Source: Candidatus Sungiibacteriota bacterium
Lineage (GTDB): Bacteria > Patescibacteriota > Minisyncoccia > Sungbacterales > SURF-37
Length of the DNA: 64,000 nucleotides
NCBI GenBank assembly: GCA_016186145.1
Contig: JACPMF010000007.1
Location: forward strand, 19,302-83,301
Reading direction: 5' to 3'
A program made the translations under genes and the position numbers. How positions within the stretch are numbered: position 1 is the stretch's first letter; each line of letters starts with the position of its first letter. Of the stretch, positions 1 through 42,472 are shown piece after piece. The notes beneath the pieces were generated by a model. It saw only the letters and a program-made list of their open reading frames with translations, had not been told where the DNA came from and ran no database searches.

Positions 1-340
1 CCATCGCCGGCATGCGGCGTCATCGGAAATTGGCGGCAAACTCTTCACGGCCACCCAATGATGGCGAGAAACGACTCCCGAATCCGGATTCGTTGAAACA
101 TTGTGAACTTCCACGACCTCGTCGGTCGGATGGTGAATCAGATGCCCAACTTCCTCAAACACTTCAGCGGCTGCCGAAATGGCAATCGTGCGATCCTTGG
201 AAGCACCGCCGCCAACGAGCTTTCGCCCGCGATCTTTTTCCTTATCGATAACAACAACAAATCGGTCTTCTGCCAAGCTTGCCGGCAGAAGAACAAAAAC
301 CGAAGTAGGAAGGTCTGGAAGGCCCAATAACTCATCCATG
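1..340 (-). CDS. hypothetical protein, 5' part only (gene continues past window start)
   Basis: I translated the reverse complement by hand. ATG at 340..338 opens a frame that stays open to position 1 (MDELLGLPDLPTSVFVLLPASLAEDRFVVVIDKEKDRGRK...). It is absent from the ORF track because it has no stop inside the window. I recognise no family. Confidence 0.35.
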
Positions 341-738
341 GCTCTGTTCCCCCTTTCTTGGGAAGGTACTGCGATGCCTACAGACTATCACAAATTGACT
401 TTTTCGTCAAGGACAACTAAAATTTATAAAGACCCCCATAGTCCCGATTCGTCCTGCGCTTTGCGTAGATGACGAATCGAGGATCCTCGATTTTCTTGCT
501 GCGGCTTCGCCGCAGAGAAAATCGGGACTCAATGGGCGAAAAGCGTTTAAATAGTCCCGCAACTTCCGCGACCAAAGGGAACGAGAAGTTGGCGAGAATC
601 CCGCACCTCCCAAACTGCTGACCTGTTAAAATATAGAGTCAGTATCGCGGAAGTACGGGATCGCGCACTCTAACCTCATCCCGCTTTCAGCGGGATTCGG
701 GATGGTGCGGTGACTTTTCACGGGATTATGGCTTTTTT
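341..738. other. ~400-nt noncoding structured region with repeated CGGGAT/ATCCCG motifs; contains one copy of the 'AATCGAGGATCCTCGATT' palindrome element (441..530)
   Basis: No convincing ORF. It contains a perfect 18-bp palindrome at 473..490 flanked by the inverted pair GTCCCGATTCG / CGAATCGGGAC, a GC hairpin GCTGCGGCTTCGCCGCAG, and a further hairpin ATCCCGCTTTCAGCGGGAT near 690..712. Confidence 0.3.
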
Positions 739-811
739 GCACCCATAGCTCAGCTGGCAGAGCAGTTGCCTCTTAAGCAAACGGTCGCAGGTTCGAATCC
801 TGCTGGGTGCA
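739..811 (+). tRNA. tRNA-Lys (anticodon CTT)
   Basis: Cloverleaf folded by hand: acceptor GCACCCA/TGGGTGC, D-arm GCTC..GAGC, anticodon stem GTTGC/GCAAC with loop CTCTTAA (anticodon CTT), T-arm GCAGG-TTCGAATC-CTGC, discriminator A. 73 nt, no encoded CCA. Confidence 0.9.
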
Positions 812-825
812 AAAAATTCATCTAA

Positions 826-885
826 TCCCCGAAAAAGCTGCAGACTCTTAATCTGTAGATGTAGGTTCGATTCCTACTGGGGGAA
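826..885 (+). other. tRNA-like fragment / pseudo-tRNA (anticodon arm with CTT loop, T-arm GTAGG-TTCGATT-CCTAC, 3' acceptor half), lacking a D-arm
   Basis: Anticodon stem GCAGA/TCTGT with loop CTCTTAA and a perfect T-arm at 861..877, followed by TGGGGGA, which pairs 6/7 with TCCCCGA at 826..832. Only 5 nt separate the acceptor and anticodon stems, so there is no D-arm. Looks like a tRNA 3'-half remnant, such as an old att site. Confidence 0.4.
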
Positions 886-917
886 TTAAATCTGGAATTA
901 TAGATATTCAACTACTA

Positions 918-1853
918 TTACAGGGATTCGATCCCTGTAGAGAAAAGGGCCAACGCATTTTTTGTCGTCATTTCTGACACTTCTTCTACCGATAAATTTT
1001 TAAGCTCAGCAAGCTTTTTGGCAACCTCAATAACATATAGCGGTTCGTTGCGTTTGCCTCTGTAGGGAATGGGCGCCACGTAAGGAGCGTCTGTTTCTAG
1101 AAGTATGCGCTCCATCGGAATGTATTTTACAACTTCGTCGTAGTCGCGCGAAAAAGTTATGACGCCGCCGAAAGAAAACGAAAACCCCAAATCAAGAAGT
1201 TCTTTTGCGTCCTCTTTGACACCGGAAAAAAAATGAATAATGCCGGGAGGAGAACTTAGAACTTGGAGCTTGGAACTTAGAATTTGAATCAGGTCGGGAA
1301 ACGCTTGACGGCAATGAATCATCAGGGGCTTTTTAACCTCGGCGGCTAACTTGATTTGTTGAAGAAAAACTCGATGCTGTTTTGCTTTTCTCTCTTCTAT
1401 AGGCAATCCGCCTTCGCCACAGGTTTCGGCGGATGCTCGTTTTTGTTGTCGCTCGCGTTGCTCGCGAACAAAAACGGCATAATCTAATCCGCATTCGCCA
1501 ATCGCAACAACTTTCGGGTTCTCTGCTAATTTTTTGTAATACTCATAATCAAAAACCTCTCCCCTACTTTCAAATCCTCCTAATTCCTTATTCGTAATTC
1601 CTAATTCCTGTTCATCGTGATATGACTTTTCCGTGTGAATCGGATGAAGCCCCACAGCCGCATACACACCCTCCGTGTATTTTTCGGTAAACCCTACCGC
1701 CCGAGCCGCCGTGTCTTTTTGCGTGCCAACATTAACCATCCACACCCCGGAATCTCTTGCGCGCTTGATTACCAAATCAGCGTCGTCCCGAAACGCCGCG
1801 AATTGAACATGGGTGTGGATATCAAAAAGTTTTGGGATTGACAGAAATTTCAT
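918..1853 (-). CDS. tatD: TatD-family metal-dependent hydrolase/DNase
   Basis: N-terminal DIHTHV motif, GLHP, ECGLD, C-terminal ETDAPY. Contains an in-frame insertion (...ILSSKLQVLSSPP...) encoded by a tandem array of AACTTRG octamers at 1250..1290. Confidence 0.85.
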   Translation of the reverse strand: MKFLSIPKLFDIHTHVQFAAFRDDADLVIKRARDSGVWMVNVGTQKDTAARAVGFTEKYTEGVYAAVGLHPIHTEKSYHDEQELGITNKELGGFESRGEVFDYEYYKKLAENPKVVAIGECGLDYAVFVREQRERQQKRASAETCGEGGLPIEERKAKQHRVFLQQIKLAAEVKKPLMIHCRQAFPDLIQILSSKLQVLSSPPGIIHFFSGVKEDAKELLDLGFSFSFGGVITFSRDYDEVVKYIPMERILLETDAPYVAPIPYRGKRNEPLYVIEVAKKLAELKNLSVEEVSEMTTKNALALFSTGIESL

Positions 1854-29914: not shown

Positions 29915-31957
29915 ATGTCAAACTTCAAACTTTTTTCAAATTTCAAACCAACCGGAGATCAACCGGGCGCCATTAGCCGACTAACGGCAAATCTGCACGC
30001 CGGCATTAAACATCAAACCCTCTTAGGGGTAACCGGTTCCGGGAAAACATTCACGATGGCAAACGTTATTGAGCGCGTGCAGAAACCAACGCTTGTAATC
30101 TCGCACAACAAAACGCTCGCCGGACAGCTTTACCAGGAATTCAAAGAGTTTTTTCCGAAGAATTCGGTCCATTATTTCGTGTCGTACTACGACTACTACC
30201 AACCGGAAGCATACATTCCCCGAACGGATACCTATATAGAAAAGGATGCAAAAATCAACGATATAATAGACGCCCTCCGGCACGCCGCAACCGCATCCCT
30301 CCTGACGCGCAACGACGTCATTATCGTCGCATCCGTATCGTGCATCTACGGCATCGGCGACCCGGAGGAATACGAAAAAATCACTCTTGATTTAGAAATC
30401 GGCAAAAAAATCGCGCGTCGCGATCTTTTACACTACCTTGTTCTTTTGCAATACGCCAAAAATGAATTTGATCCGCGCCAAGGACATTTCCGCGCGCGAG
30501 GAGACATGATAGAGATTTACCTTCCGTCCGGAGAAGAAATAATCGACGTGGAACTTGAAAACAATATAGTCGTATCGCTGAAGAAACGCCGGCAGCAAAA
30601 CCAAATTCACGATTCTGAATTCCAAACGCTTAATTCCGCGAAAATCTTTCCGGCGAAACACTTTGTCACGCCGCGCCAGAAACTTGAACTGGCCATAAAA
30701 AATATCCGCCAGGAACTGAAAGAACGCCTCTCGGCGCTCAAGAAAAACGGACGGCCGCTCGAAGCCGAGCGGCTGGAGCAACGAACCCATTTTGACCTGG
30801 AAATGTTGAAAGAAACCGGATATACGAACGGGATTGAGAATTATTCCCGCCACCTATCATTTCGCGAACCCGGTTCTCCGCCATCCACCCTTATCGACTA
30901 CTACCGCCACCGTTTTGGCAATCAGTTTCTTGTATTTATCGACGAATCGCATGTGTCTATTCCACAACTTCGCGGCATGTATCACGGCGACTATGCGCGA
31001 AAGCAAACCCTTGTTGATTACGGCTTCCGCTTGCCGTCTGCCATAGACAACAGACCGCTGAAGTTCACGGAGTTTGATAAAAAAATTAACCAACGAATTT
31101 ATGTTTCAGCAACACCGTCTGAGTATGAACTTAATCTGAGCCGCAGTTCGCATTCAGGCGTTCTAAGTTCTCCGCCAGAGGCGGATAAGCTCAAAGTCCC
31201 AAATTCATACGTCGTAGAGCAGTTCATCCGTCCGACCGGAGTTCTTGACCCGGAAACCGAAATCCGACCGACAAAGGGTCAAATCAAAAATGTCATCGCT
31301 GAAATTAAAAAACGCGTAGCCAAAAAAGAACGCTCTCTCGTCCTCGCTCTGACAAAACGCCTCGCAGAAGATATCGCCGAATACCTGCAGGAAGCGGGCA
31401 TCAAAGCCGAATACCTCCACTCCGAAGTAAAAACACTGGAACGCTCTGATATCCTCAAAAATTTGAGAACGGGAAAACATGACGTAATCGTCGGCATCAA
31501 TCTTTTGCGGGAAGGCCTTGATCTGCCGGAGGTTTCTCTTATCGCCATCCTGGACGCCGACAAGGAAGGATTTTTGAGAAACGAAACAACTCTCCTTCAA
31601 ATCATGGGGCGCGCCGCGCGGCATGTTGACGGCAAGGTGGTTCTCTACGCGGACACCATAACCGATTCGATGCGGCGGGCAATCGGCGAAACGAAGCGCC
31701 GGAGAAAAATTCAAGCGGAATACAACAAAAACAACGGCATTACCCCAAAAAAAATTGAAAAGGCAATACGAAAATCTCTCCTTGAAGAAATCGCTCCCGC
31801 CAAAAAGGAAGAAGAAATTTTTACGCCTTTAAACGCGCCCTCTCGAGAGGCTGTATCCGCCTTAGAGCGCGAGATGCGTAAAGCGGCAAAGGAGATGAAC
31901 TTCGAATTGGCCGCGAGAATTAGAGATCGTATTAAAATGTATAAACAGCAAAAATGA
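29915..31957 (+). CDS. uvrB: excinuclease ABC subunit B
   Basis: GVTGSGKTF Walker A, helicase motifs, UvrB interaction domain and C-terminal UvrB/UvrC domain (...EMNFELAARIRDRI...). 680 aa. Confidence 0.95.
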   Translation: MSNFKLFSNFKPTGDQPGAISRLTANLHAGIKHQTLLGVTGSGKTFTMANVIERVQKPTLVISHNKTLAGQLYQEFKEFFPKNSVHYFVSYYDYYQPEAYIPRTDTYIEKDAKINDIIDALRHAATASLLTRNDVIIVASVSCIYGIGDPEEYEKITLDLEIGKKIARRDLLHYLVLLQYAKNEFDPRQGHFRARGDMIEIYLPSGEEIIDVELENNIVVSLKKRRQQNQIHDSEFQTLNSAKIFPAKHFVTPRQKLELAIKNIRQELKERLSALKKNGRPLEAERLEQRTHFDLEMLKETGYTNGIENYSRHLSFREPGSPPSTLIDYYRHRFGNQFLVFIDESHVSIPQLRGMYHGDYARKQTLVDYGFRLPSAIDNRPLKFTEFDKKINQRIYVSATPSEYELNLSRSSHSGVLSSPPEADKLKVPNSYVVEQFIRPTGVLDPETEIRPTKGQIKNVIAEIKKRVAKKERSLVLALTKRLAEDIAEYLQEAGIKAEYLHSEVKTLERSDILKNLRTGKHDVIVGINLLREGLDLPEVSLIAILDADKEGFLRNETTLLQIMGRAARHVDGKVVLYADTITDSMRRAIGETKRRRKIQAEYNKNNGITPKKIEKAIRKSLLEEIAPAKKEEEIFTPLNAPSREAVSALEREMRKAAKEMNFELAARIRDRIKMYKQQK

Positions 31958-32360
31958 AAAAGTCCCGATTTTGTCAAAATTTTAATCGCTCATGTTCTAC
32001 ACATATATACTAAAATCGACCAGAACTGGTGAATACTACATTGGCTATACTGGCGATCTCTACCAACGCTTGTACGAACACAATAAAAACCGAGTTAAAG
32101 CTACACGCGGAAAGGGTCCTTGGAAAGTATTCAATCGGGAAAAATTTCTCACCGAGTATGAGGCTATTAGAAGAGAACGGCAAATAAAAAGCTGGAAAAG
32201 CCGGCGGATGATTGAACGATTAAAATTTTGATACAAAATCGAGGATCCTCGATTCGCCAGCCGCACTTGGCGCGGGGCGAATCGGGACAGCAAAGGAAAT
32301 GAATTTTGAACTCGCCGCAAAAATCCGCGACCGAATAAAGACCTATCGGAAAAATGGTTG
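31958..32360 (+). mobile_element. putative GIY-YIG insertion cassette at the uvrB 3' end, bounded downstream by a diverged ghost duplicate of the uvrB terminus
   Basis: 32291..32360 (CAAAGGAAATGAATTTTGAACTCGCCGCAAAAATCCGCGACCGAATAAAGACCTATCGGAAAAATGGTTGA) re-encodes AKEMNFELAAKIRDRIKTYRKNG* and aligns at about 75% nt identity with the current uvrB 3' end (31887..31957). It also contains the 18-bp palindrome AATCGAGGATCCTCGATT (32237..32254). Confidence 0.45.
31992..32231 (+). CDS. GIY-YIG nuclease family protein (single-domain, UPF0213/YhbQ-like)
   Basis: 79 aa. YTYILKS...YYIGYTGDLYQRLYEHN has the GIY-YIG motif with conserved Arg and Glu. Confidence 0.85.
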   Translation: MFYTYILKSTRTGEYYIGYTGDLYQRLYEHNKNRVKATRGKGPWKVFNREKFLTEYEAIRRERQIKSWKSRRMIERLKF

Positions 32361-32433
32361 ACGGGCGCAGACTTTCTAAGTATCATTTCAGAGCACTTTC
32401 ACAACAAACAGGAAGGTCGATTGGAGGCCCAAC

Positions 32434-41536: not shown

Positions 41537-42472
41537 TTACTCTCCCTTTTTCAACTCCTCGTCAGTAAGGTCATGGAACGAATCGGGGTGTTCAAGGTCG
41601 AATTTTGTCACATGCTGAAGATGATGCGGATCGAATCCCGCTTGACGGATTTCTTGGATCAGCGCGCGAAACTCCGCCCTGTCCTTAACTGCCGTTGCCC
41701 CGGCCCGGCGCGGAAGCTGGCGATCAAATACGATTTTTGATCCCCTCTTGACCTCTGCCCCGTTTCCCCGCCCATCGCTGTAAAACTGCGAGAGAACAAG
41801 GATGCGAGTGCCAACGTACACGGCCTCTTCAAGGTCGTGCGTGACAAAAAAAATCGTCATCTCGAACCGTTCCCAGAGTTCCAGCAAAAACACCTGAAGG
41901 TGTTCCCGCACTCCGGGGTCCAGCGCGCCAAACGGCTCGTCCATCAAAAGGATCTTCGGCTTCATGATCAGGGCTTGCGCCAGCGCTACCCGCTGCTGCA
42001 TGCCGCCGGAAAGCTCGTGAGGAAACTTATCTTTGTGTTCCGCAAGTTTGACTGCCTCGATGTAGAACATCGCTTCATCGTGAAATTCTCTACTCTTCCC
42101 AAGCGACCCCAGAATCCCATGCCCTAACCGCCTTCCAAAAACTACATTGTCAAACACCGTCAGAAACGGATAGAGCGAGTATTGCTGGTACACGATACCC
42201 CGGTCAACACTTGGGAAACCAACCGGCTTTCCACCGACCGAGACCTCGCCCGAAGTCGGGCGCTCTTCACCGAGAACCAATCGGAAAAGCGTTGACTTTC
42301 CGCACCCCGAGGGGCCGACCAAAGAACAAAGTTCTCCGCCGCGGACGGCGAGATCAACATTGTCAAGAACAACTTTCGGGCCATACGCCTTGTATACATC
42401 CTTGAGAAAAAGCACGCTCGCCCTTCGAAGCTCGTCGGCCGTTTTGATCATCCTCATCCCCCTATGACTCAC
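41537..42472 (-). CDS. ABC transporter ATP-binding protein (NitT/TauT family)
   Basis: Walker [10 protein letters not shown], signature LSGGMQQR, Walker [13 protein letters not shown]-loop, plus a roughly 60-aa C-terminal extension. Confidence 0.9.

Follow-up and report, generated by a model that had tools for sequence, protein, structure and literature searches.

A D-armless tRNA-Lys(CTT)-like gene beside a canonical tRNA-Lys(CTT) gene in a Candidatus Sungiibacteriota locus possibly remodelled by a GIY-YIG-associated palindromic element

The 64-kb stretch of DNA analysed here (64,000 nucleotides of a Candidatus Sungiibacteriota genome, contig JACPMF010000007.1, positions 19,302 to 83,301; hereafter the window) harbours a canonical tRNA-Lys(CTT) gene followed at short distance by a 60-nt tRNA-Lys(CTT)-like element devoid of a D arm (armless copy; Table 1). 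With evenly balanced confidence, this armless copy is proposed to be a redundant second tRNA-Lys gene that has lost its D arm in a locus remodelled by a palindromic element of a family associated with GIY-YIG nucleases. An integrase is the agent usually held responsible for partial tRNA genes, but the footprint in the present case points to a different one, namely very small palindromic elements, some of them with a GIY-YIG nuclease of 79–116 aa, which occur at the ends of the essential genes uvrB, tatD and leuS in bacteria of the candidate phyla radiation (CPR); a recoded replacement end would mostly keep the gene intact, with the old end left behind. That tRNA relics result from mobile-element activity is already known; the connection of a tRNA gene relic to a nuclease-associated palindromic element is what is proposed here.

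The armless copy matches the tRNA family RF00005 with 35.5 bits (gathering threshold 29; E 9.6e-4 for the whole window), and its acceptor, anticodon and T arms align with the model, 15 D-arm positions of which are represented by 4 nt. The acceptor stem TCCCCGA (826–832)/TGGGGGA (878–884) comprises 6 of 7 Watson-Crick pairs, the single non-standard pair being G831.G879 (tRNA positions 6–67), and is linked to the anticodon stem by the connector AAAAG(CT) of 5–7 nt, which, taken as AAAAGCT, is unable to form a D stem. The anticodon stem has 5–7 bp (7 bp, with a 5-nt connector, in the minimum-energy fold) and carries the loop CTCTTAA (CUCUUAA) at 845–851, followed by the T arm GTAGG-TTCGATT-CCTAC (861–877); the discriminator is A885 (A73), and CCA is not encoded. 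Canonical loop features (U33, anticodon CUU, A37, T-loop TTCGATT and G53-C61) are present, and altogether the conserved loop nucleotides are all intact, as are 16 of the 17 stem pairs. The first-pass annotation of this DNA had described an intact tRNA-Lys(CTT) gene at 739 and, behind it, a sequence with the same anticodon loop, a T arm, a 3' strand pairing with TCCCCGA and no D arm, hence not a standard tRNA; all of this is borne out by the above data and by the canonical gene (69.6 bits with RF00005; the single tRNA called by ARAGORN in standard mode in the 64 kb, with boundaries 738–812). Only the distance of 15 nt given for the two has to be corrected to 14 nt. The ARAGORN check recommended there had a divided outcome: no call is made at 826–885 in standard mode, but the metazoan-mitochondrial mode, which is prone to false positives (10 further calls in the window), reports a 60-nt 'D-loop tRNA-Lys(ctt)' at this position.

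The isolated 60-mer adopts a three-helix, tRNA-like minimum-energy fold (–21.2 kcal/mol; z –3.3; stability reached by 0 of 200 shuffles), and the same fold is predicted in the context 812–945, i.e., in what remains once tRNA-Lys is excised. Two other samples contain a sequence identical to 826–885 (Logan contigs L001 and L002), both contigs breaking inside the T arm of tRNA-Lys, as a shared k-mer would cause. To judge the local 5' acceptor strand, 2 Mb of retrieved loci, consisting chiefly of Parcubacteria DNA and of tRNA arrays from phages, were examined for units composed of an anticodon arm and a T arm, and these were checked for a 7-mer located at most 10 nt upstream of the anticodon stem and pairing with the 3' acceptor strand. 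Just 2 of 1027 tRNA 3' two-thirds (0.2 %) possess a 5' strand forming six or seven Watson-Crick pairs, both within ordinary tRNAs, while 10 % of them possess a pairing strand if G.U pairs are allowed. Because such pairing is rare, the local 5' strand is unlikely to have arisen by chance, and 826–885 is considered a whole tRNA-derived unit, complete but for the D arm. A second D-armless unit was not found among the 2 Mb of scanned loci.

Sequence identity between the armless copy and the neighbouring tRNA-Lys is 79 %, across 29 nt only. The universally conserved loop nucleotides are common to both, whereas the stems differ, each set pairing internally: acceptor stem GCACCCA/TGGGTGC in tRNA-Lys versus TCCCCGA/TGGGGGA in the armless copy, anticodon stem GTTGC/GCAAA versus GCAGA/TCTGT, and T stem GCAGG/CCTGC versus GTAGG/CCTAC. 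The 3' strand TGGGGGA of the armless copy pairs in just 5 of 7 positions with GCACCCA of the neighbour. Judged from these stems, the armless copy is a differently descended second tRNA-Lys(CTT) and not a copy of the neighbour. Among the sequences found, compact tRNA-Lys(CTT) genes from phage tRNA arrays of IMG/VR come closest (51/60 identity to that on contig L143); they have the T arm GTAGGTTCGATTCCTAC and a 4-nt variable region in common with the armless copy; one tRNA-Lys of these arrays (contig L108) also displays a U1-A72 acceptor stem (TCCCCCG/CGGGGGA). In end-to-end alignments with the phage-array genes, the D arm appears as one gap of 12–13 nt in the armless copy, and the residual (A)AGC-T of the connector matches the 3' strand of the D stem plus position 26. 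The phage contigs with the most similar tRNA-Lys genes were rejected as CPR phages, showing no protein similarity to CPR loci at GC contents of 37–69 %. The canonical tRNA-Lys, for its part, shares 66/73 positions (90 %) with a tRNA-Lys(CTT) on the environmental metagenome contig L208.

Upstream of the two tRNA sequences lies a palindromic element copy without an open reading frame (ORF), composed of the inverted repeat IR-L GTCCCGATT (441–449), a variable hairpin, the core AATCGAGGATCCTCGATT (475–492), a further variable hairpin and the inverted repeat IR-R AATCGGGAC (520–528). Abutting IR-L is a nonamer that reads as tRNA positions 1–7 (acceptor 5' strand) plus U8 and A9, with the first base of IR-L as G10. 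Together with this base, ACCCCCATAG (432–441) is identical to the tRNA-Lys start GCACCCATAG in 8 of 10 positions, a resemblance of only 9–10 nt that was recognised after the fact. Positions 432–438 pair 6/7 with the 3' strand of the armless copy, and in the fold of 430–945 the fragment forms six consecutive pairs with UGGGGG (878–883). Counting both strands, the window contains 2 positions, 432 being one of them, at which a 7-mer followed by TA is complementary to TGGGGGA in six or seven Watson-Crick pairs. The nonamer begins 9 nt behind the promoter-like site at 395–423, which is the sole one on the plus strand within 300–1100, and viral tRNA-Lys(CTT) genes with GCCCCCATAG...TGGGGGT exist. 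By its sequence, the fragment 432–440 looks like the displaced 5' end of a tRNA-Lys-type gene.

The architecture of 441–528 was retrieved from five other Parcubacteria loci (L010, L015, L024, L031 and L047). The six ORF-less copies, including that at 441–528, range from 56 to 88 nt, and their hairpins differ in sequence but are always paired. A 327-nt version of the element is present in the window itself (31962–32288), with a gene for a 79-aa GIY-YIG nuclease (PF01541, E 1.3e-15) inserted between IR-L and core; the longer versions generally measure ~310–330 nt and encode 79–95 aa of GIY-YIG nuclease. A description of this element family was not found in the searchable literature.

Many of these copies reside at the end of a conserved gene, accompanied by a displaced duplicate of that end. 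At the 5' end of uvrB (L228/L230, L238 and L242), the GIY-YIG version follows codon 16–18 at a GDQPx|AI motif, so that the original codons are left of the element and a complete uvrB with recoded 5' end starts 8–10 nt after IR-R; a shorter displaced uvrB fragment is present at the same site in L234. ORF-less elements occupy the 5' ends of tatD (after codon 15 in L015 and L031) and leuS (after codon 12 in L010), in each case with a displaced gene-end duplicate. The GIY-YIG version of the window itself lies behind the stop codon of uvrB, and the displaced last 23 codons of uvrB are located at 32290–32361. The paired gene-end copies of L228, L238, L242, L015, L031, L010 and the window retain the amino acids at a nucleotide identity of only 63–73 %, as expected if one copy arrived with the element. 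The leuS copy of L024 is different in that the element is integrated in frame within a variable insertion region (1 + 56 nt, corresponding to 19 codons), with no gene-end duplicate; clear duplicates were also not found at the element copies in L047, L231, L236 and L241. Overall, the sequence pattern fits a homing-type element that would bring along a recoded replacement gene end, with nuclease activity and homing of the Parcubacteria elements being predictions.

A tRNA gene may likewise be involved. On the GC-rich contig L240, a homologue of the GIY-YIG nuclease (54 % identity; ORF from 1579) follows a complete tRNA-Ala(GGC) gene within the locus 1495–1882, and an exact 44-nt direct repeat (1538–1581 = 1839–1882) spans the 3' end of the tRNA along with the CCA and a trailer of 11 nt. 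By its sequence, this is a nuclease-only insertion duplicating a tRNA end. Another nuclease homologue (L062) is located 95 nt from a tRNA-Ser gene. Relatives of this nuclease do therefore leave partial tRNA duplicates.

Table 1 Features of the tRNA-Lys locus and copies of the palindromic element (positions refer to the window unless a contig is named)
Feature	Position	Strand	Basis
D-armless tRNA-Lys(CTT)-like element, 60 nt	826–885	+	RF00005 match, fold, own 5' strand
Canonical tRNA-Lys(CTT), no encoded CCA	739–811	+	ARAGORN and Rfam RF00005
Spacer, 14 nt	812–825	+	Inverted repeats and fold of 700–900
Nonamer ACCCCCATA, like tRNA positions 1–9	432–440	+	Pairing and identity to tRNA-Lys start
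ORF-less palindromic element copy	441–528		Architecture common to Parcubacteria loci
Promoter-like site TTGACT, 17 nt, TAAAAT (putative)	395–423	+	10/12 consensus matches; consensus match alone
Conserved structured RNA, no Rfam match	553–714	+ (strand assumed)	Conservation and re-pairing
tatD, convergent with the tRNA unit	918–1853	-	ORF; PF01026
Perfect palindrome (9 bp, 3-nt loop) TACAGGGAT-TCG-ATCCCTGTA	919–939		Inverted repeat
Element copies	L010 3398–3459; L015 2041–2099; L024 5763–5818; L031 4919–4976; L047 868–938
Element copies	L228 1980–2283; L234 1861–1939 and 1971–~2290; L238 1473–1782; L242 1465–1787
Element plus duplicated gene end	L228 1932–2341; L238 1419–1845; L242 1418–1837; L234 ~1940–2350
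Element plus duplicated gene end	L015 1996–2156; L031 4874–5036; L010 3363–3504; window 31886–32361

According to the proposed scenario, a tRNA-Lys-type gene would once have begun at 432 behind the promoter-like site, as suggested by the 8/10 identity, the six consecutive pairs, the position relative to the promoter-like site, the rarity of such sites and the viral parallels. The old gene may have been displaced, as at uvrB, tatD and leuS, when the element entered and the canonical tRNA-Lys arrived with it or after it; it would then have become redundant, losing the D arm (~12–13 nt) at the break or by later deletion. Two routes are conceivable: (i) the old gene could have been split, with positions 1–9 remaining to the left of the incoming DNA (the element, perhaps the conserved RNA, and the canonical tRNA-Lys), the part from about position 22 onwards to its right, and the D arm lost at the break; the local 5' strand 826–832 then becomes a coincidence of roughly 0.2–1 %. 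(ii) Alternatively, 826–885 could be the complete old copy with its own 5' end, its D arm having been lost after the canonical gene made it redundant; the start of 826–885 is 6/9 identical to the displaced fragment, which is similar to other duplicate pairs. The acceptor/T-arm stack, which is the structure recognised by RNase P, RNase Z and the CCA-adding enzyme, is intact in the armless copy. Its RNA is probably still co-transcribed with tRNA-Lys and could undergo cleavage by RNase P and RNase Z as well as CCA addition, but we do not think that it decodes; a relic is more likely than a functional RNA, given that a canonical isoacceptor lies next to it, the acceptor stem contains a mismatch and no homologue was found.

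Several observations weigh against this scenario. IR-R is separated from tRNA-Lys by 210 nt, which include the conserved RNA, and from the armless copy by 297 nt, as compared to 8–15 nt in the clear cases. Two candidate 5' strands (432–438 and 826–832) compete for one 3' strand, each with 6/7 pairs at a chance of ~1 % or less, and at most one simple scenario can use both. Joining 432–44x to 82x–885 yields only a G-C pair plus a G.U pair in place of a proper D stem. The link between element and armless copy is built on proximity, on a 9-nt fragment recognised post hoc and on analogy to the other loci, and neither an empty site nor an intermediate was found. The intact loops and the 16/17 intact stem pairs fit a recent event and continued selection equally well. 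Moreover, the term 'phage-like' may for the armless copy simply mean 'compact', since the pattern search for this tRNA subtype covered the viral collection only.

The leading competing explanation is an ordinary pseudogene, i.e., a tandem or horizontally acquired tRNA-Lys(CTT) with an internal deletion of 12–13 nt in the D arm that is unrelated to the element 300 nt upstream. It accounts for an armless copy that lacks nothing but the D arm, carries a local 5' strand and aligns end to end with full-length tRNA-Lys(CTT) genes across a single internal gap, and it agrees with the redundancy conferred by the canonical isoacceptor 14 nt away as well as with the copy not having been found in any other lineage. 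However, the tRNA-like 9-mer at the element boundary is then left as a coincidence (two such sites in 128,000 window positions), and the partial gene and tRNA duplicates left by the element family and by relatives of its nuclease are ignored; this explanation is held to be rather unlikely. Still less probable, in our estimation, is a functional D-armless RNA, i.e., a 60-nt product that is processed by RNase P and RNase Z, receives its CCA from the CCA-adding enzyme and is used by the cell, be it as a non-canonical lysine-accepting tRNA (in translation or non-ribosomal aminoacyl transfer) or as an element at the 3' end of the tRNA-Lys transcript that serves processing or stability. Its canonical loop nucleotides, its fold that is stable once tRNA-Lys is removed and the presence of both lysine identity elements (in bacteria the anticodon and A73; PMC9976931) would suit such a role. 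The same applies to its layout (7-bp acceptor stem, ~5-nt connector, extended anticodon stem), which matches the D-armless tRNA-Ser of human mitochondria and the synthetic 'mini HisT' that E. coli HisRS, EF-Tu and ribosomes accept without adaptation (PMC11551756). On the other side stand the G.G mismatch in the acceptor stem, the adjacent canonical gene with the same anticodon, the predicted precursor fold, in which the armless 5' strand pairs with the tRNA-Lys leader instead, the detection in one lineage only (the window and two identical Logan contigs) with neither homologue nor covariation, and the fact that mitochondria are the only known source of natural armless tRNAs (PMC11551756). Particularly doubtful is the strong form, a natural, expressed, CCA-tailed and lysylated D-armless tRNA-Lys(CUU) that would serve a free-living or episymbiotic bacterium as ribosomal or dedicated lysyl donor.

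The first-pass annotation had explained the locus by an integrase, interpreting the armless sequence as an attL/attR-type partial tRNA repeat of an insertion that later decayed. Partial tRNA copies beside intact tRNAs are indeed commonly integration scars (PMC9897764), and the anticodon loop CTCTTAA is common to both copies. However, the armless copy has its own 5' acceptor strand and is neither complementary to nor a repeat of its neighbour (TGGGGGA/GCACCCA 5/7); its stems are different, identity amounts to 79 % over 29 nt, the gap is only 14 nt, and no integrase is encoded within 20 kb to the right, so that an attachment repeat is highly improbable. The accompanying statement that no integrase is present holds for 1–20 kb, where no integrase or phage gene was detected among genes such as tatD, metG and those for a transporter, a peptidase, a class II aminoacyl-tRNA synthetase and similar. 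From the idea of a decayed mobile-element insertion, the scar of an element can be retained in form of the 441–528 copy, with the integrase as agent abandoned. Likewise, the noncoding region 341–738 had been suggested as a possible part of the remnant; this is correct for 441–528 and looks so for 432–440, but not for the conserved RNA at 553–714.

The DNA belongs to a CPR bacterium of the Parcubacteria: its TatD is identical to a protein annotated in a metagenome-assembled genome of Candidatus Sungbacteria, and Sungbacteria are also the best relatives at species level. Comparative searches yielded no second instance of the arrangement. None of 80 tatD loci from GTDB has an adjoining tRNA-Lys, and the closest TatD relative (84 % amino acid identity, L222) has a convergent ORF directly after tatD and no tRNA-Lys beside it; an orthologous comparison or empty site, which the first-pass annotation had hoped to obtain from the tRNA-Lys neighbourhood of related genomes, could accordingly not be derived from these 80 loci and L222. 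A metagenome collection without the window itself was scanned for a pattern of tRNA-Lys 3' end, 15–45 nt, CTCTTAA loop and T loop, and in all 18 loci obtained, a standard tRNA-Lys(CTT) comes after an ordinary tRNA-Arg or tRNA-Lys(UUU). When viral sequences were scanned for D-armless relatives, the single match proved to be a normal phage tRNA, and a later scan gave none; the loop-and-T-arm pattern is unspecific, 116 of 120 viral matches being standard tRNA-Lys genes. Thus, no homologue of the armless copy was found in the 80 GTDB tatD loci, the metagenome pattern scan, the viral scans and the 2 Mb of loci, none of these being a structure-based search across all genomes. Absence from the GTDB tatD loci, the closest TatD relative and the metagenome and viral scans suggests the arrangement to be lineage-specific. 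On metagenome contig L204 (365–480), a tRNA-Lys(UUU) that contains an insertion precedes a tRNA-like sequence with CTT anticodon and a weak 3-bp D stem, for which ARAGORN makes no call.

Three further candidate structures were rejected. A group I intron or split tRNA is disfavoured, as patescibacterial tRNA introns sit at position 35/36 (PMC13011429) and the anticodon loop is intact here; moreover, 1–1100 has no match to an Rfam intron or another family. Split-tRNA joins of 432–44x and 82x–885 are called by ARAGORN, but with a D stem of just 2 pairs. A giant tRNA-like RNA closed by the acceptor pairing 433–438/878–883 was dismissed in view of the L010 copy of the conserved RNA, which has no tRNA or tRNA-like partner.

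Compared to known systems, the armless copy resembles the prokaryotic tRNA fragments of van der Gulik et al. (2023; PMC9897764) in being a partial copy beside a canonical gene of the same anticodon at a locus touched by a mobile element, and in that covariance models score such copies as tRNA. The latter fragments are, however, near-identical direct repeats of one tRNA end with a 9–23 kb island including an integrase in between, whereas the armless copy possesses both ends, lacks the D arm only, is diverged and is located 14 nt away with no integrase. Mitochondrial tRNA-Ser(AGY) and mini HisT (PMC11551756) share with it a size of ~60 nt, a 7-bp acceptor stem, a 4–5 nt connector, and anticodon and T arms; their charging and their use in translation are demonstrated, in contrast to the armless copy, which is known from sequence and has a canonical isoacceptor beside it. 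The Parcubacteria elements themselves are reminiscent of free-standing GIY-YIG homing genes in several respects: conserved genes have a small GIY-YIG gene or an ORF-less derivative at their end, a recoded copy serves as the functional end while the displaced end survives, and tRNA genes are possible targets (L240). In the Allomyces atp6 hybrid gene, reportedly described by Paquin, Laforest and Lang in 1994, a free-standing GIY-YIG homing endonuclease gene is said to bring a replacement gene end and to displace the resident end, and SegB of phage T4 is said to act in a tRNA gene cluster. Unlike such homing genes, the Parcubacteria elements are bounded by defined inverted repeats of 9 nt and share a conserved core palindrome of 18 nt, many are ORF-less (similar to miniature inverted-repeat transposable elements), and one lies in frame in leuS. 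This leuS copy resembles as an in-frame short palindromic repeat the Rickettsia palindromic elements, reportedly short palindromic repeats able to lie in frame within protein-coding genes (Ogata et al. are said to have described them in 2000). The resemblance concerns the copy in L024. To our knowledge, neither an associated nuclease gene nor duplicated gene ends belong to the Rickettsia elements.

If the proposed remodelling is true, it would explain odd short 'leader ORFs' and truncated duplicates in reduced genomes, the family being recognisable by sequence, and would warn annotators that tRNA-like matches above the Rfam threshold can be relics. Should the 60-nt RNA instead be expressed and charged, the statement that bacterial tRNAs are all cloverleaves would be overturned; it would be the first armless tRNA outside mitochondria, with mini HisT showing that the bacterial machinery can use such a fold.

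With regard to the flanks of the canonical tRNA-Lys, the spacer together with 826–837 is complementary to the tRNA-Lys leader (714–738) and thereby prolongs the acceptor helix. This leader/trailer complementarity extends over ~25 nt (714–738 with 811–837) and consists of a T6/A5 run followed by GGGATTA/TAATCCC; it encloses tRNA-Lys and overlaps the 5' strand of the armless copy. According to the predicted precursor fold (700–900), the leader would be a competing partner of the armless 5' strand as long as tRNA-Lys has not been excised. No terminator-like site was found between tRNA-Lys and the armless copy, so that co-transcription is likely.

The conserved RNA of ~160 nt ends 24 nt upstream of tRNA-Lys and shares 74 % identity over 170 nt (E 1.6e-24) with a sequence of another Parcubacteria genome (L010:7474–7629, minus strand). 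Between both sequences a variable hairpin is fully re-paired, and one compensatory pair is found in the consensus fold. Rfam provided no match for 553–714 at E up to 10. The L010 copy stands alone, with no tRNA or tRNA-like partner nearby. The region is a gene, not debris or a remnant. Neither the conserved RNA nor the palindrome was found in viral contigs.

At the left border of the window, an open frame of at least 113 codons (1–339, minus strand) runs off the window start. It was rejected as an integrase, having no Pfam or PHROG match and no homologue among 5.8 billion proteins, and no unusual structure was detected in this region. As the search of 5.8 billion proteins lacked even the ORF itself, it is probably not called in the deposited metagenome-assembled genome.

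On the other side of the tRNA unit, the perfect palindrome at the 3' end of tatD overlaps the stop codon and the last six codons of this gene. A T-arm-like hairpin had been annotated here at 922–938; the overlap with the tatD end is correct, but the hairpin CAGGGATTCGATCCCTG is located at 921–937, forms the centre of the palindrome and would as RNA be a plain hairpin and not a T arm. On the minus strand, 10 of 11 positions agree with the T-loop consensus GGTTCGAATCC, and matches of this quality are expected ~2 times per 64 kb, with another one at 41628. No T-run follows the hairpin. The palindrome encodes the seven C-terminal residues STGIESL of TatD, which have no counterpart in relatives: tblastn and BLASTP matches stop at query residue ~304–305 of 311. 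With its tail derived from the palindrome, the 3' end of tatD therefore also appears remodelled.

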